From Candidatus Kuenenia stuttgartensis (lineage in GTDB: Bacteria > Planctomycetota > Planctomycetia > Pirellulales > UBA1268), in NCBI GenBank assembly GCA_943332855.1, contig CALQRA010000002.1:19154-83153 (forward strand): 64,000 nt of DNA, written 5' to 3'. The first letter of the stretch is position 1. Every line of letters starts with the position of its first letter. Position numbers and translations under genes: made by a program. Positions 22,555 to 58,815 of the stretch are shown here, piece by piece. The notes under the pieces are model-generated. The model was given only the letters and a program-made list of their open reading frames with translations. It had not been told where the DNA came from and did not search any database.

Positions 22555-25488
22555 ATGCAGTCCAGAACTTTCCGCTTCATCGGCTTCGTCGCGTCAATCG
22601 CTTCGATCGGAGCACAAACCGCGGGTGTTGCCGCGGAGGTCGGCTGGTCGCCTCCCGCCCCGACGGCCACGGCATCGACCCTGTGGCTGAATGACGCCGC
22701 TGGATCCTCAACGCTGGGGCAGGGGATGCTCCAGCTCAATGGGCCTGCGGAATCCTTGGTGCTCACCGATCGCTCGACCGCCACCATCACGGGCCTTCTG
22801 ACCCTCACCGGGACCGTGCCGACCTTCCGCACGAGCGTCGCCACCGGTTCGCAGGATTCAATCGTCGGCATGAACATCGGCTCCGGGGATCCGCAGACAA
22901 GTAATGCCGGCAGAACCGTCGTCAATTCGCTTGTCGCCGATGCTGCTACCGACGTTTCCCAAATCACGAAGACCAGTCGGGGAACACTCCTGCTCGATGA
23001 CGCGAGCACCTACTCCGGCGCCACGACCCTGTTCGACGGATCGCTCGCCGCAGGCAACACGAAGTCGTTCGCCAGCGGGGCCTCCGGCCTCAATGGTGGT
23101 GCGATCTCTTCTCCGGATTTCCCCGCGGCCCCGTCTCGGACGTTTGCCAACAGCGCCTCTGTTGGAAGCACCGTGACGTTCGGAGACACGCTTTCCCCTG
23201 TCAATACCGGCTTCAGTAGCGGGATCGACCTCCAGGGCGCCGTGCGAACGTTCACGACCAACGCCAACGTCACCTTTGACGGCGTCGTCGCCAATGGTGC
23301 CGTCAGCAAGTCAGGAGCTGCCGCTCTGACGCTCACCGGGATCAACTCCTACGCCGGTGGCACCACGCTCACCGAGGGAACGCTGTTTGCCGCGAACAAT
23401 TCGGCCCTCGGCACCGGTCCGCTGGCCCTGGGGAGCACGTCCTCCCCGACGATTTCCTCGGATGCCAGCGGAGCCTCTGCCGCCCGCACATTTGCCAACG
23501 ACGTTTCGGTCAACGGCAACGTCACCTTCGGCGATGGCAGCAACAACGGCGCGATGCTCTTCGCGAGCTCCGCCAATCTGGGCAATGCCGGGGAAACGCG
23601 GACCTTCACGGTCAACGCCAAGACGACGTTCAGCGGAGAAGTCAGTGGTGGGGCAGGGCTGACGAAGACTGGCAGCGGTGTCCTCACGCTCTCCGGCAGT
23701 AATTCCTACTCCGGAGGAACGACGTTCGCCAGCGGGATGCTGAGCGCCGGCAGCAACGGCTCGTTTGGAACGGGGGCGATGACGTTCGCCGGGGGGGCCG
23801 TCGGATCGGCCGACAGCACCCCGCATACCTTCGCCAACTCCATGGTGTTCCTTGGCGATCTGACGATTGGAAACTACATCGACTCCATGGGTGCCCTGAC
23901 CTTCACGAGTCAGGTCGATCTTGGAAACACCGACCGTCGGCTGACGACGAAGGCGAACGCGACATTCACAGGGGCGATCGCCAACGGATCGATCACGAAG
24001 GACGGCCTCGGGGCCCTCGTGCTCTCCGGATCAAACTCGTACGGCGGCGGCACCACCCTCTTCGAGGGCACCTTGCTCGCAGGCAGCGATCAGGCCTTCG
24101 GGTCCGGCATGATGAATCTCAACGGCGGGATCATCGGTTCGGCCAGCGGCCAGCGATCGTTCTCCAACGCCGTGTCGATGGTCGGTGGACCGGTGCAATT
24201 CGGTGATTCCGAGCACCTCGCTTCCCTGCTCTTCACGGGCAGTACGACCCTCGCGGCTGGCCAGAAGACTTTCAACACCGTGGCCGACACCACGTTCACC
24301 GGCATTCTCGCTGGTAGCGGCGCGTCGCTCATCAAGACCGGTGACGGGATCCTCACGCTCACCAACGCCAACACCTACGACGGCGGCACGCAAATCCAGA
24401 ATGGAGTCATCCGTATCGCCAACGACGCGGCCCTCGGCGGCGGTGCGATCACGTTTGGCGGCGGTGCCCTCGCCTCGACCACCAGCGATAACCGGGGGAT
24501 TTACAACGACGTCAACTTCAACGGGGGCGCGTCGATCGGCGATGGCTCATCGAACGGAGCGTTCGTCTTCCACGGTGCCAACAATACTCTCGCCAGCGGC
24601 ACCCAGACGATCACCACGAATGTCGCCACGACGTTTGTCAACGGGATCACCGGGGCCGGCGGCCTGACGAAGTCGGGGGCTCATGCCCTCACCCTAAAGG
24701 GACTCAACACGTACACCGGCGACACGGTTATCGAGAGCGGCAAACTCGTCCTCGATGGATCGATCCTCGGGTCGAAGGAGATCCGCCTCGCCGCAGGTGC
24801 CGTTCTCGGAGGCCATGGCCGGTTCGACGGGACGATCTCCGGGGCCGGCAGCGTCGACCCGGGGAATAGCCCGGGCATTCTCGTCACCGGCACCATCGAT
24901 CCCTCGGGTGGGCTCGACTTCAACTTCGAGTTCACGCAGACGGGTGCTGCGACTTGGACGAACAGTTCGGCGAGCGGTAACGACGTCCTTGTCGCCAACG
25001 TTCCTACCCCGGCCTTCACGGCGAACCTCACCAACGCCAACACCGTCAACCTTTACTTCTCGACGGCTATGACAGCGACATTCACGGCAAGTGCTTGGAC
25101 ATCGATGCAGGGCGGTTTCTTCACCATCGATAACACCAACAGCCTCGCCTCTGCCATCGCCGGCGCGGACTTCCAGTTCTACTTCCAGGGTACCGGTGCC
25201 GGCCAAATCACCTACAACACTGTCACTTACGTCCCCCAGGCTACAGCCCGCAGCAGTGGCCTCCTTCCGGCCAGCGGGCAAGGGTTCGTCATCCGGCAAG
25301 CAACCGTGGCATCCGCCAACTTTCAGTCTCCTGTTGGCACCGTCATCAACGGTCTCTCGATGGAAGTCGTCTCGGTCCCTGAGCCTTCCACCTGGGTGAT
25401 GGGGCTCATGGCCGCCGGCGTGGCCCTCGCCCGTCGTCGCCGTCTGGCTGGTTTGCTCACCCGGTTGCGGAGATCCGTTCCGCTTTGA
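22555..25488 (+). CDS. Large surface protein: autotransporter-associated beta-strand (PATR) repeats with C-terminal PEP-CTERM sorting signal
   Basis: Start at ATG 22555 gives the signal MQSRTFRFIGFVASIASIGAQTAGVAA. There are more than 10 repeats of the type G.LTLSG.NSY.GGTT...G.L. The C-terminus is VPEPSTWVMGLMAAGVALARRRR (PEP motif + TM + Arg cluster). Confidence 0.8.
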   Translation: MQSRTFRFIGFVASIASIGAQTAGVAAEVGWSPPAPTATASTLWLNDAAGSSTLGQGMLQLNGPAESLVLTDRSTATITGLLTLTGTVPTFRTSVATGSQDSIVGMNIGSGDPQTSNAGRTVVNSLVADAATDVSQITKTSRGTLLLDDASTYSGATTLFDGSLAAGNTKSFASGASGLNGGAISSPDFPAAPSRTFANSASVGSTVTFGDTLSPVNTGFSSGIDLQGAVRTFTTNANVTFDGVVANGAVSKSGAAALTLTGINSYAGGTTLTEGTLFAANNSALGTGPLALGSTSSPTISSDASGASAARTFANDVSVNGNVTFGDGSNNGAMLFASSANLGNAGETRTFTVNAKTTFSGEVSGGAGLTKTGSGVLTLSGSNSYSGGTTFASGMLSAGSNGSFGTGAMTFAGGAVGSADSTPHTFANSMVFLGDLTIGNYIDSMGALTFTSQVDLGNTDRRLTTKANATFTGAIANGSITKDGLGALVLSGSNSYGGGTTLFEGTLLAGSDQAFGSGMMNLNGGIIGSASGQRSFSNAVSMVGGPVQFGDSEHLASLLFTGSTTLAAGQKTFNTVADTTFTGILAGSGASLIKTGDGILTLTNANTYDGGTQIQNGVIRIANDAALGGGAITFGGGALASTTSDNRGIYNDVNFNGGASIGDGSSNGAFVFHGANNTLASGTQTITTNVATTFVNGITGAGGLTKSGAHALTLKGLNTYTGDTVIESGKLVLDGSILGSKEIRLAAGAVLGGHGRFDGTISGAGSVDPGNSPGILVTGTIDPSGGLDFNFEFTQTGAATWTNSSASGNDVLVANVPTPAFTANLTNANTVNLYFSTAMTATFTASAWTSMQGGFFTIDNTNSLASAIAGADFQFYFQGTGAGQITYNTVTYVPQATARSSGLLPASGQGFVIRQATVASANFQSPVGTVINGLSMEVVSVPEPSTWVMGLMAAGVALARRRRLAGLLTRLRRSVPL

Positions 25489-34043: not shown

Positions 34044-34247
34044 CCCCCCGTCGGGCCGTCGGCCTATCGGGGAGGGGCTGCAGCGGCTGCGTAGGATGGG
34101 CAATGGCCGTTGACCCTGCGGCCCCGCACGGTGGGGCTCTGCACAGCCCCTCGCAGTCACCGCCGGACGACTGCCGTCGAACTGCCGCCGGCGCCGAAGA
34201 GTTTTCCGATGGGGCCAGGCACACCCGCCGTTCCTCCGGCAAACCCG

Positions 34248-36614
34248 ATGGTCACCCCTCTCCCAACCTTCCGCCGTCATTGGCCGCCCCGTCGTGGTTT
34301 CGGCTGGGTGGCGATCGGCCTAGCCCTCCTCCTGGCAGGGCTGGGCGCGGCGGCGGCCGGGGCCCCCCGCTCCAGGGAATCCCCCACGGCCGCTAGCCGG
34401 GCGCCGATCCGACGGCTGACGCGGATCGAGCACGAGCACACGCTCCGCGATCTTCTCGACCTCCCCGGCCTCGAGGTCCGTGGCCTCCTCCCCGAGGACG
34501 GGCGCGCCCACGGCTTCGACAAGACGGCTACGGCCCTCGACGTTTCGCATGTCCACATCGCGGGCTGGTACGCCGCCGCCGAAGCGGCGCTGGCCATGGC
34601 CACCATGCCCCAGCCGACGGCTCCGAAGCCGGTCCACGAGACGCTCCTCCCCGGTGCCCAGGAGTTTTTCAAGCTCGCCCTGCTCGAGGGAGACGCCGTC
34701 TTCCTCCGCGAAGGCGCCTACGACGACGAGGCCCTGCCGATCGTCCGCGCGGCGCTCCCGCACAAGCTCTCCCACTACGAGCAGGCGGGGCTCTTTCCCT
34801 ACCGGCACTCGGTGGGGGTCTTCCGCCGTCAGGCCGTGGACGATCACTTTGCCCTCTTCTTCACCAGCTTCGCGCCGATCCGCGCCGGCCACTACCGGCT
34901 GCGGATCTCGACCTGGAGCTTTCAGTGGGACAAAGGGCAGCTGCTGCCGAGACCGGCCCCGGAGGCCGTCAGTCTCCATGCCGACGACCGCCTGCTTGCG
35001 TATGTCGATGCGCCGTCGCTCGAGCCGACGGTCCATACGATCGACACCTGGCTCAATCCCGGCGAACGGATCCTGTTCACCGCCGCCTCGCTGCCGCCGG
35101 CCCGGGTCTACAAGATGCCGGGACGGGCAGCGGAGTATGTCGGTCCGGGAGTGGCGGTCGATTGGATCGAGGTCGAGGGACCGATCCATGAAGCCTGGCC
35201 CCCGGAGAGCCACCGTCGGATCTTCGCCGACCTGCCGGCGCTGCCGCTGCGCGACAGATCGGCCTCCCCGCCGCGCCGACCGCTCGCCGGGCAGCGTTTC
35301 CCCGGCGCGCTCCCCAGGGGTGAGGAGCCCGGAAAACCGTGGGCCGTCACCCCCGTCGACCCGGCCGCCGATGCGCGTCGGTTGCTGACGGCGTTTCTCT
35401 CGCGCGCCTACCGGCGACCGGCGACGGCAGGGGAGATCGCCGTCGCCACGGCCCTTGTCGCGAAGCGAATGAAGCAGGGGGATTCGTTCGAGGATGCCGT
35501 CCGCACCGCCTGCCGGGCGGCGCTGTGCAGCCCCGAGTTCCTCTTTGTCGGCGGGCCGCCGGGGCGACTCGACGACTGGGCCCTGGCGTCGCGTCTCTCC
35601 TATTTTCTCTGGGACTCGATGCCCGACGAGACGCTCTTCACCCTGGCACGACGCCGGCAACTCGCGCAGCCGGACATCCTCCGGGCCCAGGTCGAGCGGA
35701 TGCTCGATGACCCACGGGCCGAGCGGTTCATCGCTCACTTCACCGACGAATGGCTCGACCTCCGTGATCTCGAGGCCACCACGCCCGACGCGACGCTCTA
35801 CCCCGATTTCAGTTCCGCCCTCCTCGATGCCATGCGGGCCGAGACGAGGGCCTTTGTCACCGAGCTCGTGCGTGGCGACGAGCCGGTGACGGCCCTCGTC
35901 CGCTCCGACTTCGTGATGGTCAATCAGCGATTGGCAGACCACTACTTCCCGGGGGATGGCGCCGCCGTGAGGGGCTGCGCCATCCGCCGCGTGCCACTGC
36001 CGGAGGGGAGCCACCGCGGGGGCCTCCTCGGCCAGGCGGCGATCCACAAGGTGACCGCCAACGGCACGGTGACGTCGCCGGTGAAACGCGGCGTCTGGGT
36101 GCTGCGGGAGCTGCTCGATGCCCCCCCCGATCCGCCCCCGCCTGGGGTCCCGGCGGTCGATCCCGATGTCCGCGGTGCGGTCTCGATCCGCGACCAACTC
36201 GCCCGGCATACCTCCGATGCCGGCTGTGCCGCCTGCCATGCCGCCATCGATCCCCCCGGCTTCGCCCTCGAGCGGTTCGATGCGGTCGGCCAATGGCGCG
36301 ACCGCTACCGTGTCTTCACCGACGCCCCCGGCCCCTCCGCCATCGACGGCCCACCGGTCGACGACGCCTGCACACTCGCCGATGGCCGTCACTGCGCGTC
36401 GTTCGAGGCCTTCCGTGACGCGCTCGTTGCCGACCGGCGCCTGCTCGCCGCGGCGCTGGCCAGACAGCTCGTCGTCTACGCCACCGGGGCCGACGTGCTC
36501 CCCGCGGAGCGCGACGCCATCGCCCGGATCGTCGACGACGCCGAGAGGGCGGGGGGGGGGGTCCGTGCGGTGATCCATGCCGTCGTGGCCAGTCCACTGT
36601 TCCTCGACCAGTGA
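34248..36614 (+). CDS. DUF1592/DUF1588/DUF1585-family protein (planctomycete type) with CxxCH motif
   Basis: ATG 34248 with TM WVAIGLALLLAGLGAAAAGA. The architecture and motifs (RLSYFLWDSMPDE, LLGQAAIHKVTANGTVTSPVKRG, CAACHAAIDPPGFALERFD with CAACH at 36225-36239) are typical of the family that pairs with DUF1552. Confidence 0.75.
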   Translation: MVTPLPTFRRHWPPRRGFGWVAIGLALLLAGLGAAAAGAPRSRESPTAASRAPIRRLTRIEHEHTLRDLLDLPGLEVRGLLPEDGRAHGFDKTATALDVSHVHIAGWYAAAEAALAMATMPQPTAPKPVHETLLPGAQEFFKLALLEGDAVFLREGAYDDEALPIVRAALPHKLSHYEQAGLFPYRHSVGVFRRQAVDDHFALFFTSFAPIRAGHYRLRISTWSFQWDKGQLLPRPAPEAVSLHADDRLLAYVDAPSLEPTVHTIDTWLNPGERILFTAASLPPARVYKMPGRAAEYVGPGVAVDWIEVEGPIHEAWPPESHRRIFADLPALPLRDRSASPPRRPLAGQRFPGALPRGEEPGKPWAVTPVDPAADARRLLTAFLSRAYRRPATAGEIAVATALVAKRMKQGDSFEDAVRTACRAALCSPEFLFVGGPPGRLDDWALASRLSYFLWDSMPDETLFTLARRRQLAQPDILRAQVERMLDDPRAERFIAHFTDEWLDLRDLEATTPDATLYPDFSSALLDAMRAETRAFVTELVRGDEPVTALVRSDFVMVNQRLADHYFPGDGAAVRGCAIRRVPLPEGSHRGGLLGQAAIHKVTANGTVTSPVKRGVWVLRELLDAPPDPPPPGVPAVDPDVRGAVSIRDQLARHTSDAGCAACHAAIDPPGFALERFDAVGQWRDRYRVFTDAPGPSAIDGPPVDDACTLADGRHCASFEAFRDALVADRRLLAAALARQLVVYATGADVLPAERDAIARIVDDAERAGGGVRAVIHAVVASPLFLDQ

Positions 36615-37915
36615 AAGGACCCCCTCCGATGGCCCCCTCCTTCCCGACGAGCCTCTCCAGACGCCGCCTCCTCCGGGCCTGCGGCGTCGGCATCGGCCTG
36701 CCGTGGCTCGAGGCGCTGGCGCCGCGCCGACCGGCAACGGCCGCCGAGCCCCGGTCCCCGCTGCGGTTGGTGGCGATCGAGACGACGATGGGACTGCTCC
36801 CCCAATACTTCTTTCCCGAGGGGACCGGCCACGACTACGTCCCCTCTCCCTACCTCGTCCCCCTCGAGCCGTTTCGCGACCGGCTCACCGTCTGCTCCGG
36901 GCTCTCCCATCCCGACGTCGACGGCGGCCATGCGGCCGACATCGCCTTCCTGACCGGGGCTCCCCACCCGGCCAGCGGTAGCTTCCGCAACACCGTGTCG
37001 CTCGACCAATTCGCCGCCGAACGGCTCGGCGCAGAGACGAGGCTCCCGAGCCTGTCGCTCACCGTCGCCGCCCAGGGAACGACGAGCTTGTCGTTCACGC
37101 GTGACGGCGTGCTCCTCCCCGGCGAGCGGAGCCCGGCCCGGCTCTACCGGCAGATGTTCCTCCAGGGAACGCCGCAGGAGACCGGCGAAAAGATCGAGGC
37201 CCTCCGCACCGGCCGCAGTGTTCTCGACTTCGTCGCCACCGGTGCCCGCCGCCTCGACAAGAACCTCCCGGCCGCCGATCGGGAACGGCTCGACCAATAC
37301 TTCACGAGTGTCCGCGACCTCGAGGACCGGCTCCAGCGGGCCGAGGTGTGGGAGAAGCGCCGCCGCCCTCGGCCGAAGTTGCCCCCCCCGGTGGAGAACC
37401 CCGAGCAGGACCTGTTCACGCTCCTGCGGCTGATGGGGCAGATGATCCGCCTGGCCCTGGAGAGCGACACGACGCGGCTGGTGACGCTGCTGGTCAATCC
37501 GGCCCAGTGGGTACCGCGGGCCCCAGGGGTCGTCCACGAAACCCACGCCCTGACGCACCACGGCAACCGGCCGGAGATGATCGCCGAGCTCAAGCGGGTC
37601 GAGGAGATGCAATTCGTGATCCTCGCCGAGCTCCTCGCCGGGCTCGACGGTGTCCGTGAGGGGAGCCACTCGCTCCTCGACGGAACGATGGTCCTCCACG
37701 GATCGTGCCTGGGGAACGCCAACGCCCACTCCAACAGCCGGCTCCCGGTGCTCGTCGCCGGGGGGGGATTCCACCACGCCGGACACCTCGCCTTCACCGA
37801 TCGTGACGCGCCGCCGCTGGCGAATCTCTACGTCAGTCTGCTCCAGCGGCTCGGCGTCGAAACCGACCGTTTCGCCAGCTCCACCGGCACCCTCCGCGGC
37901 CTCGAGGCCGCCTGA
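36611..37915 (+). CDS. DUF1552-family protein (Tat-signal)
   Basis: LSRRRLLRACGVGIGLPWLEA is twin-arginine-like. Later motifs include HPDVDGGH and HHAGH. A 4-bp overlap with the upstream DUF1592 gene matches the canonical pair. Confidence 0.8.
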   Translation: MKGPPPMAPSFPTSLSRRRLLRACGVGIGLPWLEALAPRRPATAAEPRSPLRLVAIETTMGLLPQYFFPEGTGHDYVPSPYLVPLEPFRDRLTVCSGLSHPDVDGGHAADIAFLTGAPHPASGSFRNTVSLDQFAAERLGAETRLPSLSLTVAAQGTTSLSFTRDGVLLPGERSPARLYRQMFLQGTPQETGEKIEALRTGRSVLDFVATGARRLDKNLPAADRERLDQYFTSVRDLEDRLQRAEVWEKRRRPRPKLPPPVENPEQDLFTLLRLMGQMIRLALESDTTRLVTLLVNPAQWVPRAPGVVHETHALTHHGNRPEMIAELKRVEEMQFVILAELLAGLDGVREGSHSLLDGTMVLHGSCLGNANAHSNSRLPVLVAGGGFHHAGHLAFTDRDAPPLANLYVSLLQRLGVETDRFASSTGTLRGLEAA

Positions 37916-43780: not shown

Positions 43781-43996
43781 TCGCTGACGAAAGATCGGCC
43801 CTCTCTCCGGCCCCTCTGCACCCCCCGTTGGTTCGCGGCCGGCGCTGGGTGGCACCGTTTTCCGGGCCGTGGGGAGTCTCTGGTTCGTCCGTGTTTATCG
43901 CCCGTCAACAGCTGTTGAGGTGAGGGGCGGCAGCGGCGTATCAACAGCTCGCCTCGATCCTTGCCCTGAACACCTCTCCCGTCGACAATCCATTCC

Positions 43997-44272
43997 ATGC
44001 GAAGGTTGCTCTACCAGGACGAAGCTCGGCTCGAATATGGGCGGATGTTCTGGGCCGATCCCCGGAAGCGGCAACGTCTCCTTGATCATTGGCTCGACCC
44101 CCGTCATCCCTCCCACGAGCGTTTCCTGGAGCGATGGCGGCCGATCGTCGCGCGCGTCCTTGAAGCGAATCCTGTCGCCGACGACCTCCTCGACCGTGAG
44201 CTCCAAGCCGAAGGCTTGAGTCTCCGCGTCGTCGTCCGGGAGATTCCCCCCGTCTTCGGCAGTTTTTTCTGA
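43997..44272 (+). CDS. Hypothetical small protein
   Basis: 91-aa ORF with helical, protein-like composition and GC-rich third positions. No family recognised. An antisense ORF (43895-44380) is less protein-like. Confidence 0.35.
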   Translation: MRRLLYQDEARLEYGRMFWADPRKRQRLLDHWLDPRHPSHERFLERWRPIVARVLEANPVADDLLDRELQAEGLSLRVVVREIPPVFGSFF

Positions 44273-44748
44273 CCGGCTGACGATCTCTCCTCTCCTCCGG
44301 GGTGAACAGCATCCCGAAGAGAGGCATCCTATCGCCTGCTGCCAGCCCGTGTCAGCCGGCAGCACCGCCGGCCAGGGCACCGATCGCCAGTTCCAACTCC
44401 TCCTCGGTCATCGACTGCGGCGATGACTTGGTCTGCTCGCGGAACTGGGCCAGCCGGATGACGGCCGCCAGATGCCGTCCGGGCGGGGTCGTAGCGATGG
44501 TGCGTGCGTCGGGAGGATGAAGCCGGGCTGGGCAGTAAGCAATCGGGGACTGCCCGAAGGTTTGATCGCCAGTCTTCGTCACCATTGGCAGGCCTGAACC
44601 TCGTCGCCGGGCCTCATCACCCGGGACGAGCCCTTTCCCGGGGCTGCCACGCGGATTCAATTCCCTCCGCCGCCAAATTGAATCCCACCTCGAACCGATT
44701 CCTTGACGGAAATGAAAGCCTTTCCTACGAGGGATTCCAAGAGGGGGG

Positions 44749-45936
44749 ATGCGCACTCTCATGAGACGCCTTCGGAGGTCTCAATCAACCGGCCTCGCGC
44801 TCCCCAGCAACTCCGGCTCGGGGGCAGGCTCGTCCTCCTCGTGCCCCGCCAACGGCTCTCTTGCGAACGACCCTACCATTTCGTCGCAGTACACCGGCGG
44901 TGCGGGAGGTGGCCTAGTGTTCTTCGTCGCAGGAGCAACCGGGGCGAATGCGGCAAACTCGGTGAGCCAACAGGGAATAACCGGATCAACCGCGCTCACG
45001 CTGGCGGATGGCCAATCGACCGTGACGACCACGCCGCTGGTCTACCAACCCGGTAGCGACGACGGGCCGGGGGTCGTCTCGGCCGTGTGGACGGGCGGCG
45101 AAGGGGACGTGCAGTTTATGCCGGTGGCGGATGAGGAAGTTCAAGCGGCATCGCCGCCAGAGTATTCCGGACCGACCATTCAGGCAGCTCCTCCGTGGTA
45201 CATCAGCGCTTGGTACACGTTCTTCGGAAGACTTGCCAGCGATCAACCGCTGATCGGCGATCCGAGGGGATCCAAGTCCTTCGAGACCGGTGGCAGGACC
45301 TACACCGTTCCCAATTACGTCCACGACGACACCTTCTACTGGATCGCCGGCAATCTCTACCACCGACCGCTCATCGGCGATGTAATTGGAACTGCGGAAC
45401 TGCCATTTCGGATTTTGGCGAACCCGGGACGATTCGCCCATGCTACGGTCGACGGCGCCGTGGGCACGATCACGAACATTCCGAGGCTGCCCGAGATCTG
45501 GAGCGACATGCCGGACTACCAGCGGCAGGACTGGGTAATCAGAATGTTGGCCGTACCTTATCTCACAGCGGCAGGGGTTAGTTTCTCGGGCGTGGGAAAG
45601 TATTCTAAGTCGCCTGATGCAACCCACTTCTATGGGACCGCCAAACCTTTCAGCGATGGAGCGACGCCGGGGTCAATCTATACCCACATCGACCCGGACA
45701 GTGGGAAAGCCGTTCAAAATGCGATCTATAACGCAGACGGGAAGGTGATTGATCATGTGGATTTCAAGAATCATGGCGCCGGCGCACCGTCAGGCCATGG
45801 CCACAGATTTCCGCAGCCGGGCAACCCATCTTCAGGGCATGGCCCAGGAAAGCCACATATCCCAAGCAACCAACTCCCACCCGGGTGGGACGCCCTTCCA
45901 CCGAAAGTAGAGCCACACACACCACTCGGACGCTAG
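44749..45936 (+). CDS. Putative polymorphic-toxin-like protein (C-terminal toxin-type module)
   Basis: 395 aa with no signal peptide. The C-terminal segment is GSIYTHIDPDSGKAVQNAIYNADGKVIDHVDFKNHGAGAPSGHGHRF. This resembles the Y-(D/N)-x-x-G-x-hydrophobic-x-x-hydrophobic-D ... H-x-H tips found on Rhs/polymorphic toxins. An immunity-like gene follows 3 nt after the stop, and the 3' half is AT-richer. Confidence 0.45.
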   Translation: MRTLMRRLRRSQSTGLALPSNSGSGAGSSSSCPANGSLANDPTISSQYTGGAGGGLVFFVAGATGANAANSVSQQGITGSTALTLADGQSTVTTTPLVYQPGSDDGPGVVSAVWTGGEGDVQFMPVADEEVQAASPPEYSGPTIQAAPPWYISAWYTFFGRLASDQPLIGDPRGSKSFETGGRTYTVPNYVHDDTFYWIAGNLYHRPLIGDVIGTAELPFRILANPGRFAHATVDGAVGTITNIPRLPEIWSDMPDYQRQDWVIRMLAVPYLTAAGVSFSGVGKYSKSPDATHFYGTAKPFSDGATPGSIYTHIDPDSGKAVQNAIYNADGKVIDHVDFKNHGAGAPSGHGHRFPQPGNPSSGHGPGKPHIPSNQLPPGWDALPPKVEPHTPLGR

Positions 45937-45938
45937 CT

Positions 45939-46355
45939 ATGACGCCTCTCTCACCAGACCATACTTCCAAGTTTCTCGAACGCTTCGTGTCGTTCAACGA
46001 CGCATTGCTTCGGAGTGTTACGCACTCCTATTTTCCTGACGGAACACAGATTTCATCACTTTCGCTATCCGCCAAGGATATCGATTCTTCAGACGGATGG
46101 TCGAATGTGACCCTTGTTATTGTCGATGTTAAGGAGATTGTATTTCGGGAAGGCGCATCAACTCGACAGATTCTTTCCGATGGTTTGTCCATTAAGTGGA
46201 TAGACGGTCGCGTCTGGTGCGACTTTTCTCCCTACGCCAGTAATCCGCAGAATGAGTCCGATTTTCGTCGATCGGATCTCTTCGTAACCGGCACTCACGC
46301 GGCATGGACAGTGGGCCCCTATGCTGAGAATGTTTCCGTTGCTTGGAAGACCTGA
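45939..46355 (+). CDS. Putative immunity protein (Imm50-like pattern)
   Basis: 138 aa from ATG 45939, 2 nt after the toxin stop. It is cytoplasmic and AT-richer than the window. The F.DA.L.SV...L.L...D......V.LVI.DV.EI.F pattern is typical of small polymorphic-toxin immunity proteins. Confidence 0.45.
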   Translation: MTPLSPDHTSKFLERFVSFNDALLRSVTHSYFPDGTQISSLSLSAKDIDSSDGWSNVTLVIVDVKEIVFREGASTRQILSDGLSIKWIDGRVWCDFSPYASNPQNESDFRRSDLFVTGTHAAWTVGPYAENVSVAWKT

Positions 46356-46447
46356 TCTGGGCGGTAGGAAAGTCTGCGCCCAATGGGGACAACGGCCAGG
46401 CTAAGGTTTCAGTCGCCGCATCCTGTGCACGCGGGCTTTAACTAGGC

Positions 46448-46804
46448 ATGCTGAGACGACCCATGAGCACGAGATTCGAAATGGCGAAGGAGCTTATCGG
46501 CGAGGCGCACGCCGATGAGGTCGGTTTATGGTTCGTAGTGGCTCGTATCCGTGATGAGGTGGGAGACGCCGATCTCGATCGCCTCCAACGCGAGACTCTC
46601 GATTGTGTCGATCTGATGCTAGCCTCAGGTGATGTCTCGGCAGGCTCCTATCGCCCTGATGGAAGTGGACTCGAGTTATGGCATCGCGATCGACAGGACA
46701 TTCTCAATCGGATCGCCGATGAGTGGAATAAACTCGGTCGAATTCCGGACCTTGGTGACATCGTCGTGTTTGTGGGGCGCCATGGGGCAACATCCCTACC
46801 ATGA
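46448..46804 (+). CDS. Second small immunity-like/hypothetical protein
   Basis: 118 aa, with an alternative ATG at 46463. Acidic and cytoplasmic (EVGLWFVVARIRDE...LGRIPDLGDIVVF). Same strand and same AT-richer composition as the preceding gene. Confidence 0.4.
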   Translation: MLRRPMSTRFEMAKELIGEAHADEVGLWFVVARIRDEVGDADLDRLQRETLDCVDLMLASGDVSAGSYRPDGSGLELWHRDRQDILNRIADEWNKLGRIPDLGDIVVFVGRHGATSLP

Positions 46805-47312
46805 TCCCTGATCGAGTCTCCTCGGAGCGAATGCCGATGGTGCAGTAGCCCCTCTCTTCCACCGGTGGCGGACAATAGCCAACTTGAAGATTTCCAGTCG
46901 CCCCTGGGCCAACTCGGCCAGCAACTGCGTCCACACGGACCTCTCGACGAGCAACCCGTAGACGCATTCGGGCACGCCACTATCCAGGCGGCCTTGGCCT
47001 CCCCTGGAAATCCAGATCCAGGCGGCTCCAGGGCAGCCCCTCCCGATTTCGGATGAAGCGCCCCTGACCCACTCGGGCCTCCGGCCGACGAGAGCCGCTG
47101 GATACCAGGACTGGTCGGACGAAGTTCGCTGATCGCAGCCTGCTTCCTCCACCGGTGTTCAGACCGGTGCTCTCTTGAAGCCCGTGGCGGGACCGCTCGC
47201 ATGCCCTTTTTGCCGACGGATTCTGGCGAGGAACCCATTTTCAGAGCCCTGGGCAGACCCGAAGGTCTCGCCTTAACGGCGCACTCGTAGAAAGAGTGAG
47301 CCGTGCCGAACG

Positions 47313-48056
47313 TCACTCACCGGCCGGCGGCTGCCACGTCCAGAGTTCCCTGGCGGCGGTGCAGTAATCCCCGAGGTGAAACACCGCGGCGCCAGCCACT
47401 TTGAAGCGGAAGTCAGCAAAAGGCGCTGCCTGCATTTCGCGGACGAAATCGAACTGCCCGACGCCGGTCGTCACGTGCGGACCGTACTTCGTGCCGAGCT
47501 GCTCGGGGACAAACGTGCGGACGTAGTCGCGCGACGACGCATTGATTTCGGTCTGCCCGGGCGCGGTGACGAATGCGGCCGAGGTGCCGTCGGGCACCGT
47601 GTACGGCTCGACGGCCTCGACGATCGCCTCCTGCAGCGCGCGGAGTTCGGGCGTCGGCCGAATCACGATCCCCGCCAGGCCCATGTTGTCGAAGTCAACG
47701 AAAAAGCAGCCGGTGGCCTCGAGCTCCCAACCGACCGGCCGCTGTTGGTCGAAGACACGCTGGACGGCGGCAAAAACTTTATCCAGGTCGTTCGTCCGCA
47801 CGTAGCGCTGCAACACCGTGATGTGCGGCCGGTGCTCGGCGTCGAGCGCAAAGCCGGCTGGATGGTTGGCGCGGAGCCGCGCGTTGTCGGCTTGCGCATG
47901 GGCGATCATGGTTTCATCCGGCAGCAGCAGGATGTCGATGGCCGTGACCGCTTCGGCGGCCGCTACGCCGCCAGCGGCAAGCGGAGCAAGAACGCCAAGA
48001 ACGAGCGACATGATTCTGGTGCTCAAACGGAATTGATTCATGGGAGCAACGCTCAA
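47313..48056 (-). CDS. Secreted 2H-phosphoesterase superfamily protein (LigT/2',5'-RNA-ligase-like)
   Basis: Two H-x-T motifs in the right context (RPHITVLQ and GPHVTTGV) and an N-terminal signal (IMSLVLGVLAPLAAGGVAAAEA). Confidence 0.6.
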   Translation of the reverse strand: MSVAPMNQFRLSTRIMSLVLGVLAPLAAGGVAAAEAVTAIDILLLPDETMIAHAQADNARLRANHPAGFALDAEHRPHITVLQRYVRTNDLDKVFAAVQRVFDQQRPVGWELEATGCFFVDFDNMGLAGIVIRPTPELRALQEAIVEAVEPYTVPDGTSAAFVTAPGQTEINASSRDYVRTFVPEQLGTKYGPHVTTGVGQFDFVREMQAAPFADFRFKVAGAAVFHLGDYCTAARELWTWQPPAGE

Positions 48057-52713: not shown

Positions 52714-53085
52714 TCAGGCCACCACCCGCCGCCGGCGCTCGAGGAGCCCAAGCGCCCCGCCCACGAGGGCCAGCACCGAGCCCATCCCGGCCGGGTCGAT
52801 TTCGGGCACGGCCTGGAGGGGCGAGATCTCCACGCTCAGCGGACTGAAAAATGCACTTTTTTCGTTCGTTCCGTTCGTCACGGTGATCCGAAAAGATTCG
52901 AAGGCGTTGCCGGAGAACGTTGTAGAGGTGCCAGAAAAGTCAGCCAGATACGCCGCCGGCGTCGGTGGGTTGACTTGCGAAATGGGGCTCCTCCGCAGAC
53001 TCCGTGAGCGCAGACCGGCTTGAGAGAAAGCCTGATGCGGGCTGCAACAGAGCCGCCACCGCAGTCCGCCGGCAGCCGTGGCCGG
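52714..53085 (-). pseudogene. Small PEP-CTERM protein gene lacking an in-frame start (probable frameshift), absent from the ORF track
   Basis: Hand translation of the minus frame ending at TGA 52714-52716 gives ...YLADFSGTSTTFSGNAFESFRITVTNGTNEKSAFFSPLSVEISPLQAVPEIDPAGMGSVLALVGGALGLLERRRRVVA*. The frame is open back to a stop at 53086-53088, but no ATG, GTG or TTG precedes the domain. An ATG-initiated ORF in another frame (MALTGHGCRRTAVAALLQPAS..., within ORF 52940-53296) ends at 52940 inside this frame. Confidence 0.45.
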
Positions 53086-53385
53086 TCAAGGCCATGACCC
53101 GTCGGGCCGCGGTGGCGGCATCAGGCTTCGTCCGGCCGACCGCCGCCCGGAGACAGACGTTCGGCCGCACAGGAAGAGGCGGAGGAGTCCCACCCAACCT
53201 GCCACCATGGCAGACTCCAAGATTAATCGCGAAGCATCGCTCCGGCTCAGACCCGAAGCGATGCCCCGGCAGGAAGACAGCCTCCTGCCGGGGCACACGC
53301 TCTTACTGCTGCTATGCCGCTAGCAGAGGAGAAGAAGGGATCAGGGGGATCAAAGGGATAAAGGGCAAAAGCCCAAAGGGAACCG

Positions 53386-54435
53386 TCAGCGGCCGTACCG
53401 CCGTCGTTCCAGTAACCCAAGTCCACCGAAGAGCAGCCCCAACACGGCACTCAAACCGCTCGGGTCGATCTCGGGGACGCCGGAGGGGCCGCTGACCGGA
53501 CTTGCGAGACGAAAACCGACGGTGAGGCCCGCGGTCTCCGGGTCTAACGAGCCACGGCAGGAGGACGACATAAGGAACGCAATGCCGTTCCAATTGCCGC
53601 CACGCTGCCCACGAGACGAGCCGGAAGCACCCGTGAGGTCGTTCCATTCATACACGTTGCCGCTCATGTCAAACGCCCCGTAGAAGCTCGGCCCGCCGTT
53701 GGTCCCCACCGTCGTCACGATGCCATTTTGGCCATTCCAGACAGCGTTATTGTCGTAGTTCGCGAAGTTGCCGGTGCTGCCAGCGGAGCCGTTTCCTGTC
53801 GAATCCGCCGTCACCGCCGTCGGGGCCAAATCGCTCTGCGTGGCGTAATTCCAGTAGCCGGCGCTGGTGCCTCCACCCTTGTAGTACGCCGCCTTGTACC
53901 ACTGGTCTTCCGTCGGGAGGTAGAACGTCGCGCCCGAGTTGACCGCCGGGGCCGTGCCGCTCGTCTGGCCGCCGACGAGCGTATACGCCCCTGTCTCTGT
54001 GCTCGACGAGCTTGTGGCGCCGTTCATCAGCCAGTTGGAGACTCGTGCCGCATCGAACCAACTCACGTATTCCACCGGCTTGTCGCCCATGTTCGACCTC
54101 GCGGCGTACTTGCTGCCAGAGGCCGCATCAGGTGTGAGACTGATCCCTCCACGGCCGTCGGTGCCCATGCTCGTGTTGTAGACGGAATAGGGATTGGTGC
54201 CGCTTGAATCGACGGAGTTCAGGAAGTCGGTGTACTGCTGGTTCGTGAACTGATATTTTGCAATCCGGAATGAAGCGGCCACGGCACCGTAGCCATCAGA
54301 GTCGGTATCAGCCGTGTTTCCCGGGTCGCCGACCGTCACCCACTCGATGATTCCGGCGTTGGCGATAGAGCCCAACGGGAGGCAGGCCAAGGCAGCCAGC
54401 CAAAGGGAAAAAGCTTTCAAAGAAAAGTACCGCAT
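53386..54435 (-). CDS. SUMF1/FGE-domain (formylglycine-generating-enzyme-like) protein with PEP-CTERM anchor
   Basis: Signal MRYFSLKAFSLWLAALACLPLGSIANA. FGE-sulfatase-type motifs PVEYVSWFDA, GAFDMSGNVYEWN, RGGNW, GFRLA. C-terminus VPEIDPSGLSAVLGLLFGGLGLLERRRYGR. Confidence 0.85.
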   Translation of the reverse strand: MRYFSLKAFSLWLAALACLPLGSIANAGIIEWVTVGDPGNTADTDSDGYGAVAASFRIAKYQFTNQQYTDFLNSVDSSGTNPYSVYNTSMGTDGRGGISLTPDAASGSKYAARSNMGDKPVEYVSWFDAARVSNWLMNGATSSSSTETGAYTLVGGQTSGTAPAVNSGATFYLPTEDQWYKAAYYKGGGTSAGYWNYATQSDLAPTAVTADSTGNGSAGSTGNFANYDNNAVWNGQNGIVTTVGTNGGPSFYGAFDMSGNVYEWNDLTGASGSSRGQRGGNWNGIAFLMSSSCRGSLDPETAGLTVGFRLASPVSGPSGVPEIDPSGLSAVLGLLFGGLGLLERRRYGR

Positions 54436-54525
54436 GCGATCGTCCTTCCCATAACGTAAATCGGCGTTCGACGGAGGGCGAAAAACCTACCCCCTCTTCG
54501 GTCTAAAGCACCCCCCCACTTCCGT

Positions 54526-54582
54526 CAAGGCCCTGCCAAGGCCCTGCCAAGGCCCTGCCAAGGCCCTGCCAAGGCCCTGCCA
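54526..54582 (-). repeat. 11-bp tandem repeat x5 (CAAGGCCCTGC on +; GCAGGGCCTTG on -) forming phased sigma-54 -24/-12-like elements
   Basis: Perfect copies at 54526, 54537, 54548, 54559 and 54570. The minus strand reads TG-GCAGGGCCTTG x5, giving four overlapping TGGCAG-N5-TGGCA units. The consensus is TGGCAC-N5-TTGCW, and GG and GC are correctly spaced. The array lies 91-147 nt upstream of the FGE/PEP-CTERM ATG (54435). Confidence 0.6.
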
Positions 54583-54691
54583 CAAGTTTCGCGAAGTTTC
54601 CGCCAGCCACGGCCGCCAGATCACTTTCACCCCCCAGTTTTTTAGCCCACATCGCAAGCACCCCACGCAGAAAGCGCAACGGACCACGCGC

Positions 54692-54715
54692 ATTGCGAAA
54701 GACACTTTGCGCAAT
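54692..54715. promoter_or_regulatory. Inverted repeat ATTGCG-N12-CGCAAT (candidate operator/UAS), copy 2
   Basis: ATTGCG 54692-54697, 12-nt spacer, CGCAAT 54710-54715. It lies ~110-190 bp upstream (minus-strand sense) of the sigma-54-like repeat elements. Confidence 0.5.
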
Positions 54716-54734
54716 TTCCCCCACCGGCGACTCG

Positions 54735-54986
54735 TCACCCCCGGATCCCATCGCCGGGGGGAATGGTGCTCATCGCCCCGGCTAGGACGGCTCGCTCGAC
54801 GGGGTGGCGGCCGTCATTCGCGGGGCGCGTGGAACGACGCCGGAAACGTTTCCCCCCCTCGCCGTCCGTGGCGGGGGCACGGGGCTCCTTGGCGGCGAAA
54901 TCCTCCCCCAGGTCGTCGATCCCCGCCATCGGGAGCGGGTCGTCGGCAGGGTCCTCGGGCGTCTCGCCGTTCTCTCCGCTCGGCAT
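54735..54986 (-). CDS. Possible small acidic protein (83 aa)
   Basis: ATG 54986 with strongly GC-biased third codon positions by hand count. No recognisable family, and the GGAAGG directly abuts the ATG (poor SD spacing). Confidence 0.3.
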   Translation of the reverse strand: MPSGENGETPEDPADDPLPMAGIDDLGEDFAAKEPRAPATDGEGGKRFRRRSTRPANDGRHPVERAVLAGAMSTIPPGDGIRG

Positions 54987-55092
54987 CCTTCCGACCGCAT
55001 GCCCGGCGACGACCGCACCGGCATAGAGCGGCAGGCACGGGCCGAACCGGCTGGGGAGCAGCGCCCCACGACGCCGGCCGCGGAGCGCAGCG

Positions 55093-57081
55093 TCAGCTCT
55101 TCTTCGCCCACCGGGTGAGCTTGCGGTCGAGAGTCGATCGCTCGATGCCGAGCATCGCTGCCGCCTTTGTTTTGTTGCCGCCGACCGCAGCGAGGGTCGC
55201 CATGATGTGGCGGCGCTCCAGTTCCTCGATGGTCTGCGGTACGAACGCGCCGGTCGGCCCGCCCGTCCCGCGCCCCGTGCCGCGACCGGTGTCGCCGGAT
55301 GGTGCGAGTTGGCTCAACGCCAGATCCGACGTGTCGATCGTGTCGTGCGTGGAGAGCACGACGGCCCGCTCGATGCAGTTGCGCAGCTCGCGGATGTTCC
55401 CCGGCCACTGGTAGCCGAGGAGGGCCTCGAGGGCGGCGGGGGAGAAGTCGTGCACACCCCGCCCCGTCTCGGCGGCGAACCGGGCGAGGAAGTGCCTGGC
55501 CAACGGCTCGATGTCCTCGCGCCGGCGCCGCAGCGGCGGCACGACAATCTCCACCACCTTGAGACGGAAGTAGAGGTCACGACGGAACTCATTGGCCGCC
55601 ACCGCCTCCTCGAGATTGCGGTTGGTGGCCGCCACGACGCGGACGTCGACCTGCACCCGCTGGCTGCCGCCGACACGCTCGAACGAATGCCCCTCGAGAA
55701 CACGGAGGAACTTCGCCTGGATCGTCTGGCTCATCTCGCCGATCTCGTCGAGGAACAGCGTTCCCCGGTGGGCAGCCTCGAACTTCCCCGCCTTCCGTTC
55801 GGTGGCGCCGGTGAAGGCGCCCTTCTCGTGCCCGAACAGCTCGCTCTCCAGGAGCGTTTCGGTCAGCGCAGCGCAGTTGAGGCAGACAAACGCCGCGGTG
55901 CGGCGGTCGCTGGCGTCATGGATCGCCCGGGCGACGAGCTCCTTGCCGGAGCCACTCTCCCCGCGCACCAGCACCGTCGCCTTGGTCGACGCGACGCGGG
56001 CGATCTGGCTGACGATATTCGACAGGGCCGGACTCCCTCCCACCATCCGCGACTCCTCCCGGAGCCGCTGCCGGAGACGTTCATTCTCGTCGGAGGTGCT
56101 CGCGAGGCGAACGGAAAGCCGCTCCCGCGTCGAGAGATTCTCAACAGCGATCCCCAGGGCGTCGCAGACCGCCATCACGAACTCGAGGTCGTCGGGGGTC
56201 GCTGGTCGGCCGCCGGCGGCCTGTTCGACATGGAGGACGCCGACCGGCCGCCCACCGACGCGCACCGGTGCCGAGATCGCCGAGCGTGAATCGTCGACCG
56301 CGGCCCCGGCAACCGGGGCTTGCGGCGCACGCCCGACGAGGATCGCCTCGTTCGAGGCGAGGACAGTTGCCACGGCTCCGGCGGGGAGCCCGCCTTCAGG
56401 CGGCCACCCCGGGGGCGCTGCCGCCGCCGGCACGAGCGACGCCACACCGGTGGGCGCCCGCCATTCCGCCGCCGGTCCGAGGGGAGGGAAGAGAACGACA
56501 CCATGGGGGGCTCCGGCACCATCCATCGCGGCATCGAGCGCCAAGCGGGCCACCTCGGCGATGTCGGTCGCGCGGGCGAGGGCGAAGGCGAGCCGGCAGA
56601 GACTGGCCGCAGCCTTGCCGACGCGGGGCACGCTGCCGGCCGATTCACCGATGTCGTCGAGAAGCCGCGTCTTGTCGCGGCGGAGCGTGATCGCATCGGA
56701 CCACTTCCGCATGTCACTGGTGACTTCGGAGGTCTCCGTCGCCTCGTCGGAGAGCCCGGACAGGTCGGTCGGCGGATCCCCTTCGCCGAATACGATCTCC
56801 GCCCCGCCGATGCGGATCGTGTCCCCCGCGGCGAGCGTCCGCTCACCGACGATCGGCTCGCTCCCCACGATCGTGCCGTTGCGGCTGCCGACGTCCCGCA
56901 CCACCCAGTTGGGGGCCACCGCCATCACCTCGGCATGGAAGCGGCTGGAACGCTCGTCGTGGAGGACGATGCTGTTGGAGGGCCCACGGCCGATCGTGCA
57001 CGGCTGCCCCGGGTAAAGACGGACAACGCTGTGGCCGACGGTGGGATCGAGGACGAGCAGAAAGGCGGGATTAGATTCCAT
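55093..57081 (-). CDS. Sigma-54-dependent transcriptional activator: FHA + GAF + AAA+ (GAFTGA) + Fis-type HTH
   Basis: ATG 57081. FHA: CTIGRGPSNSIVLHDERSSRFHAEV...VRDVGSRNGT. A GAF-like middle follows. AAA+: VLVRGESGSGKELVARAIH, ESELFGHEKGAFTGA, LFLDEIGEM. C-terminal HTH: NKTKAAAMLGIERSTLDRKL. Confidence 0.85.
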   Translation of the reverse strand: MESNPAFLLVLDPTVGHSVVRLYPGQPCTIGRGPSNSIVLHDERSSRFHAEVMAVAPNWVVRDVGSRNGTIVGSEPIVGERTLAAGDTIRIGGAEIVFGEGDPPTDLSGLSDEATETSEVTSDMRKWSDAITLRRDKTRLLDDIGESAGSVPRVGKAAASLCRLAFALARATDIAEVARLALDAAMDGAGAPHGVVLFPPLGPAAEWRAPTGVASLVPAAAAPPGWPPEGGLPAGAVATVLASNEAILVGRAPQAPVAGAAVDDSRSAISAPVRVGGRPVGVLHVEQAAGGRPATPDDLEFVMAVCDALGIAVENLSTRERLSVRLASTSDENERLRQRLREESRMVGGSPALSNIVSQIARVASTKATVLVRGESGSGKELVARAIHDASDRRTAAFVCLNCAALTETLLESELFGHEKGAFTGATERKAGKFEAAHRGTLFLDEIGEMSQTIQAKFLRVLEGHSFERVGGSQRVQVDVRVVAATNRNLEEAVAANEFRRDLYFRLKVVEIVVPPLRRRREDIEPLARHFLARFAAETGRGVHDFSPAALEALLGYQWPGNIRELRNCIERAVVLSTHDTIDTSDLALSQLAPSGDTGRGTGRGTGGPTGAFVPQTIEELERRHIMATLAAVGGNKTKAAAMLGIERSTLDRKLTRWAKKS

Positions 57082-57369
57082 CGGCCCATTCAGGTCTCGA
57101 AGGCGAGGCGCGGCCCATGACCGAGACCGGCGAATGGGCGCCTGTGCATGATGCATCAGCCGGAGGGGATTTGCGAGCCGAGGGCCCTCGCCATCGGCTC
57201 CCGCCGGGCGGCTGGAGGGAAAAACCGGCCAGACCCCCAGTTTTGCCCGTCGCAATCGGGTTTGCAGAACAAACCCCGGCCGGTCTACGATTGCCGCGAA
57301 ATGCGGGATCACCCCGTTTGTCAAGCCCCCGTGCCTCCCAGTCACGGGTTTCCCAGCCGGAGGACGTCC

Positions 57370-58815
57370 ATGACACGCCAGGCACCGCATTCCCATCTCG
57401 TTGCCCCGCCGTCCGCCGGCGGAAGATCTCTGGCGACGACCCGGGGCCTCGGGCGGCACGATTCCCTCGGCACGTCGGGCTGGAGCCGCCCGGTGGCAGC
57501 CCTGCTGGCGATCATCCTGTCATGCGCTGGCACCGGATCGGCCGAGGCGCAGTTCCTCGGTGGCCAGGCGGTCGGCGGCATCTCGATCGACGCCGACGGC
57601 ATCGTCCGCAACGTCGATGCGAAGATCCTCGACGAACTCTCCGCCACCCGCCGCAAGGCCTTGGCCGGCGGCGGCCCAAAGCAATCAAAGGATGGCCTGC
57701 GGAAGGTGTCGTTGGCCCGTCTCACGAAGGCGGTCGAGGCGGCCGCAGCCGGCACGGCGCCCCTTCCGGCGGATGTCGCACTGATGGGCGGGCTCGAGCG
57801 GATCACCCATGTGTTCGTCGATCCCGACGGTCATGACATCGTGCTCGCCGGTCCGGCCGATGCAGCGCGCGTCGATGCGGCCGGCAACGTCCTCGGCGCG
57901 TCGAGCGGTCGCCCGCTGCTCCAACTCGAAGACTTCATCGTCGCCCTCCGGGCCGTCGACGGAGCCCGAGAGGGGGGGATGCTGTGCTCGATCGATCCAG
58001 CCCCCGAGCGCGTCGCCGACCTGCAGAAGTTTCTCAAACTCCAGCAGGCCAGTGCCGCCGATCCGGCCGGAACGCTCCGGAAGATGGAGGAGGTTCTCGG
58101 TCCGCAGAACGTCCGCATCGGCGGCGTGCCGACCGACAGCCGGTTCGCCCGCGTGCTCGTGGCCGCCGACTACCGACTGAAGCGGATCGGCATGGGCCTC
58201 GAGCCCTCCGGACTGAATGACCTTCCCAGCTACCTGGCGACGGTTCCCGCCAACGCCAGCGTCGGCACGCTCCCCCGCTTCTGGCTCGAGGCGTCGTATG
58301 ACCCGATCGCCCGCGACGCCGACGAGCTCGCCTTCCGGCTCTCCGGCCGAAAGATCGCCTGCCTCACCGAGAACGACGTGTTCGCGAAGGACGGCGTGAA
58401 GCGCGGGGCCGGCCCGACCGACAAGGTGGCGCAGAAGTGGTGCGACGGCTTCAGCGCGAAGTACGATGCCCTCTCCGCGAAGCATCCGGTGTTCGCCGAA
58501 CTGGCCAACTGCGTCGATCTCGCCGTTGTCGCCGCCCTCATCCAGGGGCAGCAGCTCGACCGCAAGGCGGGCCTCGATCTGTCGGGGCTCCTCGATGCCG
58601 ATCGTGTCCGCCTCCCGACCTACGACGCTCCGGCCACCGTTCCAACCGTCGCCAGCGGGGTGAAGAAGGGGGGACGGTGGGTGGTGAGTGCCTCCGGCGG
58701 CATCCAGTTCCAGCCGTGGGGATTCGCAACGAACACGGTCGAATCGGATGATATCGCAACGACGCGCACCGCAGCCCTGAGCGCCCGGGCCGACACCGCT
58801 TGGTGGTGGGACTGA
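57370..58815 (+). CDS. Secreted hypothetical protein (DUF1598-like, planctomycete type)
   Basis: ATG 57370 with signal VAALLAIILSCAGTGSAEA. GGISIDADGIVRN... and the overall pattern are recalled from DUF1598. Family call is from memory only. Confidence 0.55.
   Translation: MTRQAPHSHLVAPPSAGGRSLATTRGLGRHDSLGTSGWSRPVAALLAIILSCAGTGSAEAQFLGGQAVGGISIDADGIVRNVDAKILDELSATRRKALAGGGPKQSKDGLRKVSLARLTKAVEAAAAGTAPLPADVALMGGLERITHVFVDPDGHDIVLAGPADAARVDAAGNVLGASSGRPLLQLEDFIVALRAVDGAREGGMLCSIDPAPERVADLQKFLKLQQASAADPAGTLRKMEEVLGPQNVRIGGVPTDSRFARVLVAADYRLKRIGMGLEPSGLNDLPSYLATVPANASVGTLPRFWLEASYDPIARDADELAFRLSGRKIACLTENDVFAKDGVKRGAGPTDKVAQKWCDGFSAKYDALSAKHPVFAELANCVDLAVVAALIQGQQLDRKAGLDLSGLLDADRVRLPTYDAPATVPTVASGVKKGGRWVVSASGGIQFQPWGFATNTVESDDIATTRTAALSARADTAWWWD

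Follow-up and report, generated by a model that had tools for sequence, protein, structure and literature searches.

Simple sequence repeats (SSRs) that act from within promoters, as rheostats or as contingency loci, are known for the most part from Helicobacter, Neisseria, Haemophilus and Campylobacter, and to our knowledge stochastic surface variation has so far been described almost only in host-adapted pathogens. Direct repeats at promoters are also familiar from the PHO boxes of the OmpR/PhoB family, in which 11-nt units lie next to the -35 box or replace it. Three promoter SSRs are the closest relatives of the locus described here. In Helicobacter pylori, a T-tract next to the -35 box of sabA shifts UP-like elements, and its effect on RNA polymerase binding has been shown experimentally (PMC4081817). 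The TAAA tract of Neisseria meningitidis nadA respaces distal operators (PMC2791445), and at hmw1A and hmw2A of Haemophilus influenzae the number of 7-bp repeats is inversely correlated with mRNA (PMC2424069, PMC8262952). A further point of comparison is the PrsR-associated sigma-54 motif found upstream of proteobacterial PEP-CTERM genes (PMC1569441), together with the general sigma-54 consensus (PMC2725144).

In this report, we analyze an 11-bp tandem array located between two genes of a 64-kb stretch of planctomycete DNA, hereafter called the window. It belongs to a kind already known, the promoter-located SSR; what is unusual here is the host and the 11-bp quasi-palindromic unit. Our best explanation, which we put forward tentatively and at somewhat less than an even chance, is that the array is a slippage-prone, promoter-proximal repeat of the rheostat or contingency type, situated in the promoter module of a multi-copy gene for a secreted FGE protein. 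The features on which the discussion turns are collected in Table 1.

Table 1. Features of the array locus (coordinates in the window) and aligned type-A upstream regions of four paralogs
Feature	Coordinates	Strand	Description
Duplicated module	53056..55034	-	about 600 bp of upstream region, FGE-like gene and 3' flank; blastn boundaries; recurs in other genomic contexts
FGE-sulfatase-domain gene	53386..54435	-	349 aa; Pfam FGE-sulfatase, 1e-20; downstream of the array
TAGACC, weak candidate -10 element	54500..54505	-	3/6 matches; 17 nt after TTGACG; tentative
Spacer	54506..54522	-	17 nt, with a poly-G tract (G7 at 54511-54517)
TTGACG, -35-like hexamer	54523..54528	-	arises from the terminal partial unit of the array; lies 93 nt upstream of the ATG
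11-bp tandem array	54526..54582	-	reads TG(GCAGGGCCTTG)x5; copy number polymorphic, 3, 5 or 6 at the locus
Direct repeat GAAACTT-CGC-GAAACTT with palindrome TTCGCGAA	54584..54600	-	10-bp period; directly 5' of the array
Inverted repeat ATTGCGAAA-N6-TTGCGCAAT	54692..54715		9-nt arms, 89% complementary; 6-nt spacer
Sigma-54 enhancer-binding protein gene	55093..57081	-	FHA-GAF-Sigma54_activat-AAA_lid-HTH_8, GAFTGA intact; upstream of the array
L107, type-A upstream region			TTGGACAGGGCC TTGGATTAGCG TTGACA (alignment)
L106, type-A upstream region			TGGACTGCGCC TTGGAGTGGCA TTGACA (alignment)
L007, type-A upstream region			TGGACAGGGCC TGAGATTGGCC TTGACA (alignment)
L013, type-A upstream region			CGGACAGGGCC TTGGAATGGCC CTGAAA (alignment)

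A search of the 64-kb window with TRF returned 61 rows, among which the array (period 11, 5.2 copies, 100% matches) has the maximum score, 114, with the runner-up at 57. An earlier reading made from the letters of the window (the sequence-only reading) had described a perfect 11-bp repeat in five copies lying 91-147 nt upstream of the ATG at 54435, and both the repeat and the distance are as claimed. The array was built independently in more than 10 public contigs and is therefore no assembly artefact. Nor is it a dispersed element, since an exact search for two units among JGI metagenome contigs gave four unrelated loci, coding or in other intergenic regions, none of which carries an FGE or activator homolog. 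One further JGI contig (L093, Ga0164297_10001036), unrelated to the window and of 67% G+C, has at its positions 4100-4200 an imperfect intergenic array on the unit of the window array (GGGGCCTTGGCAGGGCCTTGGCAGGGCCTTGGCAGAGCCTTGGCGGGGCC); this array stands just 3' of a stop codon, with no FGE or activator homolog nearby.

Every unit contains the 10-nt quasi-palindrome CAGGGCCTTG, self-complementary with two G-T/G-U wobbles, and for this reason a long hairpin is predicted for the array (z=-4.1 as DNA; z=-3.2 as RNA, with -75.7 kcal/mol for 165 nt). Such strong folding, and wobble pairs that are G-U on the sense strand only, would suit a structural element, that is, an RNA hairpin in a long 5' untranslated region read from a more distant upstream promoter, or a DNA cruciform affecting local supercoiling. 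We regard this as exceedingly improbable: the hairpin is not kept in two-unit paralogs, no U-tract for a terminator is present, a gathering scan of the whole window against Rfam matched a tRNA-Glu only and nothing at the array, and a conserved -35-like box downstream of the array (see below) would leave the array untranscribed.

Variation in repeat number had been predicted by the sequence-only reading, and it was found when copy number was compared among independent assemblies, as whole-unit differences on near-identical or identical backgrounds. The locus has three units in L104, five in the window and 9 contigs, and six in L084-L086; a paralogous, UxuA-adjacent locus has two (8 contigs). 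These four lengths are the only copy-number states recovered, all of them from short-read assemblies. Ten contigs encode an identical protein and have identical array flanks, yet seven carry five units and three carry six. Two of the six-unit contigs, L084 and L086, show zero substitutions relative to the window over 2.7 kb (54650-51920), overall identities are 99.5-99.9%, and in the three-unit contig 300 nt of upstream flank are identical. Assembly error was considered as the source of the copy differences and rejected: both the k-mers and the reads used exceed the arrays (35-68 nt) in length, and three independent assemblies gave the six-unit allele and at least 10 the five-unit allele, always with identical flanks.

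In three megahit k141 contigs (L084, L085 and L090), the distance between the contig end and the 3' edge of the array is exactly 141 nt. These ends fit a de Bruijn branch between leaving the array and entering one more unit, and so suggest that length variants co-exist in single samples. The two-unit state is constant across the 8 contigs of the paralogous locus, and arrays of at least three units vary; this appears to be the pattern expected for SSR instability.

The gene downstream of the array had been called FGE/PEP-CTERM. The first part of this name stands, by virtue of the Pfam match in Table 1, and the second falls: the PEP-CTERM HMM (PF07589 / TIGR02595) does not match the protein, its isolated C-terminus reaches IPTL-CTERM at E=0.067 only, which is under the cut-off, and the likeness of this C-terminus (PEIDP, hydrophobic stretch, RRR) to a sorting signal is one seen by eye only. 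The N-terminus of the protein resembles a signal peptide, and at its C-terminus RRR comes after a hydrophobic helix; its gene is preceded by the ribosome-binding site AAGGA at 54443-54447 and is a member of a large multi-copy family in freshwater Pirellulales. On the other side of the array, the sigma-54 activator gene and the inverted repeat that had been reported are both present, the former with its domains and GAFTGA loop. Public gene calls start the activator at 57081 (662 aa), and the ORF is extendable to a GTG at 57459 (788 aa). Because this extension is Arg/Pro-rich and overlaps the divergent DUF1598 ORF 57148-58815 (+), the shorter start is more likely. Pfam annotation of more than 40 ORFs found no rpoN within the 64-kb window, and we infer its presence in the genome from the intact enhancer-binding protein. 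No family match was obtained for ORFs 54503-54751 and 54735-54986, which overlap the intergenic region; public metagenome-assembled genomes (MAGs) list the second as a gene, yet it lies within a region missing from the syntenic ortholog described below, and its status as a real gene is doubtful.

Some other features of the window may be recorded here. The protein encoded at 22375-25488 is a true PEP-CTERM protein with PATR repeats (PF07589, 6e-07), and 34110-37915 holds a planctomycete-typical gene pair, PSD/PSCyt (DUF1585-1595) plus DUF1552; the two findings are in keeping with the source organism, a freshwater planctomycete of the Pirellulales. Around 44000-47300, G+C is 0.55-0.64 as against 0.68-0.70 elsewhere in the window, and ORFs 44749-45936 (+), 46648-47316 (-), 43895-44380 (-) and 45885-46355 (+) in this stretch have no Pfam matches; it may be foreign or fast-evolving DNA.

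Comparison with related loci separates the array from the activator gene. In the syntenic ortholog, L001 (MAG EUL_332), the activator lies directly upstream with 96% amino acid identity, and homology to the window extends through the activator stop plus 57 nt as far as 55039 and is lost from there to 54398, where it sets in again inside the FGE-like gene. The intergenic region of L001 is unrelated sequence, with no array, inverted repeat or sigma-54-like site. Conversely, the duplicated module, with its upstream region, stands beside paralogs that lack a nearby activator (L098-L103, L110 and L113, which have a divergent UxuA-like neighbour, as well as L106 and L107-L109). The inverted repeat of these paralogs is perfect, TTGCGCAA-N6-TTGCGCAA, and the window copy has one mismatch. 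Because the module recurs without the activator, and L001 has the activator without the module, the regulatory region goes with the FGE-like gene and not with the activator.

The alignment of type-A upstream regions also points to a course of descent. Distant type-A paralogs have two imperfect units of about 11 bp (TTGGACAGGGCC TTGGAnTnGCn), followed by a conserved hexamer. Two imperfect units plus TTGACA are the ancestral state, retained in these paralogs. In the window clade, one base is lost from the first unit (GGACAGG to GGCAGG), which creates TGGCA, and the units are homogenised and expanded. The array of L095 has five units, four of which read TGGTAGGGCCT, a C-to-T variant that turns GC into GT; in L113 both of the two units read TGGTA, again with GT for GC. 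The variant unit has swept four of the five positions in L095.

The paralog family shows further signs of reshuffling. Its 5' regions are modular and swapped. One class, upstream of the FGE-like paralogs in L021, L029, L105 and L111, has a CCCGATTCGTCC-like unit directly repeated three times at intervals of about 20 nt. The coding sequence of L105 is 93% identical to that of the window, and the identity begins only at -12 of the ATG. Within the FGE-like gene, the segment 53520-53620 has about 35 substitutions and a 3-nt insertion in L096/L097, the rest of about 2.7 kb being identical to the window, and this patch has the look of gene conversion from a paralog. Similarly, the upstream region of L104 matches that of the window at 100%, but the protein encoded there is only 85% identical. 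In L001, the last 20 nt or so of the activator and the next 57 nt (55115-55039 in the window) are repeated 3' of the FGE-like gene (L001 positions 3569-3625 and 5204-5280), and in L011 a fragment of the activator (amino acids 621-721; positions 1736-2038) follows the FGE-like gene. Because pieces of the activator 3' end recur beyond the FGE-like gene in this way, an insertion or exchange of that gene by recombination at the 3' end of the activator is suggested.

These comparisons bear directly on the central proposal of the sequence-only reading, which was that the array consists of four phased sigma-54 promoters of the -24/-12 type. In the model that follows from it, the promoters overlap, the adjacent FHA-GAF protein acts on them from the inverted repeat, and slippage alters both the number of promoters and their distance to this upstream activating sequence. 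The register on which it was built is real: the gene strand has four TGGCA-N6-TGGCA sites (54582-54567, 54571-54556, 54560-54545 and 54549-54534) against 0.07 expected by chance, all of them are TGGCAGGGCCTTGGCA, and the spacing between the GG at -24 and the GC at -12 is canonical. The four-fold phasing, however, is automatic, since the period of the repeat is 11 bp, and 57.5% of the 11-mers of the window put GG-N10-GC in register when tandemised. Only 1.6% of them (given strand; 3.2% on either) would mimic sigma-54 as well as the array unit does. Compared with TGGCAC-N5-TTGCW, every site of the array is wrong at 2 of 11 specified positions (-21 C>G and -14 T>G). Sites with two mismatches occur in the window, whose G+C content is 68%, at the frequency expected by chance (15 seen, 16.1 +/- 3.5 expected), and none with one mismatch or fewer was found in the whole window. 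The likeness is a modest coincidence, neither trivial nor compelling, and comparative data must therefore decide.

They speak against the proposal. At the would-be -12 position, L106, L107, L007 and L013 have GG or GA and no GC, L095 and L113 have GT, and the TGGCA of the window clade itself is derived, through the 1-nt deletion described above. No sigma-54-like site is kept at one position anywhere in the module. The proposed link of the array to the activator and the inverted repeat is not borne out, for the module, inverted repeat included, occurs beside paralogs without a nearby activator, and L001 keeps the activator without array or inverted repeat. Among 65 homologs, sigma-54-like sites were seen upstream of L028, L032, L055 and L074 only, and sigma-54 control is therefore not family-wide. 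On the other side stand the GAFTGA-bearing activator directly upstream, the near-canonical sites of the distant paralogs L028, L032 and L055, the one sigma-54-like site retained in the two-unit paralog L098, and the frequent occurrence of sigma-54 motifs before proteobacterial PEP-CTERM genes (PMC1569441). In L028 and L032, which form a separate upstream class, the site is GGCATCGTTTTTGCA and lies about 110 nt before the ATG. A search of the literature for sigma-54 promoters made of tandem repeats found nothing relevant. Overlapping sigma-54 promoters served by the adjacent activator are, on balance, very improbable, and there is equally little chance that functional sigma-54 promoters, tunable by slippage, arose de novo from the derived TGGCA units. 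The sigma-54 look of the array is better seen as a probable side effect of how the derived unit reads at a period of 11 bp. A general caution follows, as any 11-bp tandem repeat containing GGC will resemble phased sigma-54 promoters.

The 3' edge of the array provides a different candidate for the core promoter. The position of the -35-like hexamer reads TTGAC followed by A, G or C in 8/9 aligned type-A upstream sequences. TTGACA is also found at -71 to -106 from the ATG in unrelated, unalignable upstream classes of the paralog family, for example in the ATTTATTTGACAcgg block of L004, L005, L006, L009, L012 and L041; L040 has TTGGCA at the exact spot of TTGACA. A consensus sigma-70 and terminator scan of 54300-55200 reported no promoter or terminator, and for this reason the conserved -35 box is the sole basis of a sigma-70 reading. 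The promoter rules of planctomycetes are poorly known, and nothing usable on planctomycete promoter motifs was found in the literature. The length of the poly-G tract in the spacer differs among relatives (G7 in the window, G6 in L095, G8 in L098 and G9 in L007), and the tract is absent in L106 and L107. It is possibly a second hypermutable element, of the classic spacer-length type.

The position of the array against this hexamer also raises the idea of a direct-repeat operator, in which head-to-tail units of about 11 bp bind a regulator that contacts RNA polymerase at or near -35, much as winged-helix regulators of the OmpR/PhoB type do at PHO boxes, so that unit number sets occupancy and cooperativity. 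A TTGG...GCC periodicity of about 11 bp does predate the expansion and abuts the -35-like box in all type-A paralogs, and direct repeats exist in other upstream classes, such as the threefold CCCGATTCGTCC of L021, L029, L105 and L111. Yet no candidate regulator was identified, the units of the paralogs differ substantially in sequence, and units so perfectly identical speak for recent slippage rather than for selection on each site. We therefore hold an operator of this kind to be quite improbable.

Under the favoured explanation, a slippage-prone repeat in the promoter module, the events can be pictured as follows. An ancestral two-unit repeat has lost one base and given rise to a homogenised unit, present today in 2, 3, 5 or 6 perfect copies, and the hairpin of the array may promote slippage during replication. 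The core promoter would be sigma-70-like and consist of TTGACG (54528-54523), the 17-nt G-rich spacer and TAGACC, with transcription starting near 54493. With each added unit, the distance between the -35 box and the conserved elements upstream of the array would grow by about one helical turn. The elements so displaced would be the GAAACTT direct repeat, the AAAGTGATC...GTGGCT block and the TTGCGCAA inverted repeat. The first of these, kept in L098, L106, L107 and L013 and deleted in L113, is a possible binding site for a regulator, and the array would determine how far it lies from the -35 box. Unit number would thereby grade promoter output, as in known promoter-proximal repeat rheostats, and from this analogy, with sabA, nadA and hmwA as the models, we infer that repeat number affects expression of the FGE gene.

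The main rival to this explanation is a neutral microsatellite, alike in its slippage anatomy, in which expression does not depend on copy number to any meaningful extent and additions of a whole turn are tolerated. Length variation by itself could be neutral, and since the 11-bp period roughly keeps helical phase, changes in copy number could equally be tolerated rather than exploited. The unit sequence differs among paralogs, the syntenic ortholog lacks the array altogether, and the TGGTA variant has spread with no evident counter-selection, all of which would be expected of a neutral repeat. However, the array sits directly between the conserved -35-like box and conserved upstream blocks, and in characterised systems changes of 11-44 bp at such a position normally alter output (PMC4081817, PMC2791445). 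There are, moreover, further signs that the gene family diversifies, in the swapped 5' regions, the gene-conversion patch and the variable poly-G. We consider the neutral alternative rather unlikely.

A broader form of the favoured explanation would make the locus part of a contingency system acting on the secreted FGE family, in which the copy-number-graded promoter is combined with the variable poly-G and with gene conversion and 5'-region swapping. This we judge unlikely, and decidedly doubtful at present. If repeat number does set expression, the range of promoter-SSR rheostats or contingency loci would come to include a free-living planctomycete not yet in culture, and a unit that, at one helical turn, is unusually long. 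Bet-hedging at the level of the population would then be indicated, over a family of secreted or surface proteins and perhaps against phage or grazers.

How the locus compares with the systems cited at the outset can now be stated. With sigma-54 promoters it shares the exact GG/GC spacing, an adjacent gene for an enhancer-binding protein, a long intergenic region and a lone downstream gene. It departs from them, and from the PrsR system, in that the GC is not conserved in paralogs and in two alleles, and that activator and module are not co-inherited; furthermore, the activator is of the FHA-GAF type and not PrsR, and the downstream protein does not score as PEP-CTERM. As in PHO-box operators, head-to-tail repeats with a period of about 11 bp abut the -35 position and differ in number between promoters. 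Unlike those operators, the units here are perfectly identical, which is the signature of slippage and not of independently maintained sites, and neither a cognate regulator nor a unit consensus was found.

The resemblance to nadA and hmwA lies in multi-base tandem repeats that are placed upstream of or within the promoter region and are polymorphic in copy number among isolates. There, the units are of 4 and 7 bp, the ranges are larger (9-28 copies for hmwA) and the mechanisms have been put to experimental test, whereas the present array, known from sequence alone, has 2-6 copies of an 11-bp quasi-palindromic unit. With sabA the likeness goes further: a slippage-prone repeat stands directly upstream of the -35 element and differs in length among close relatives, upstream elements are shifted relative to the core promoter, and the product is a surface or secreted protein of a paralogous family. 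The repeat of sabA is a homopolymer that changes axial phase in steps of 1 bp, while an 11-bp unit would change distance far more than phase; and where sabA belongs to Helicobacter pylori, the host here is a free-living freshwater planctomycete.
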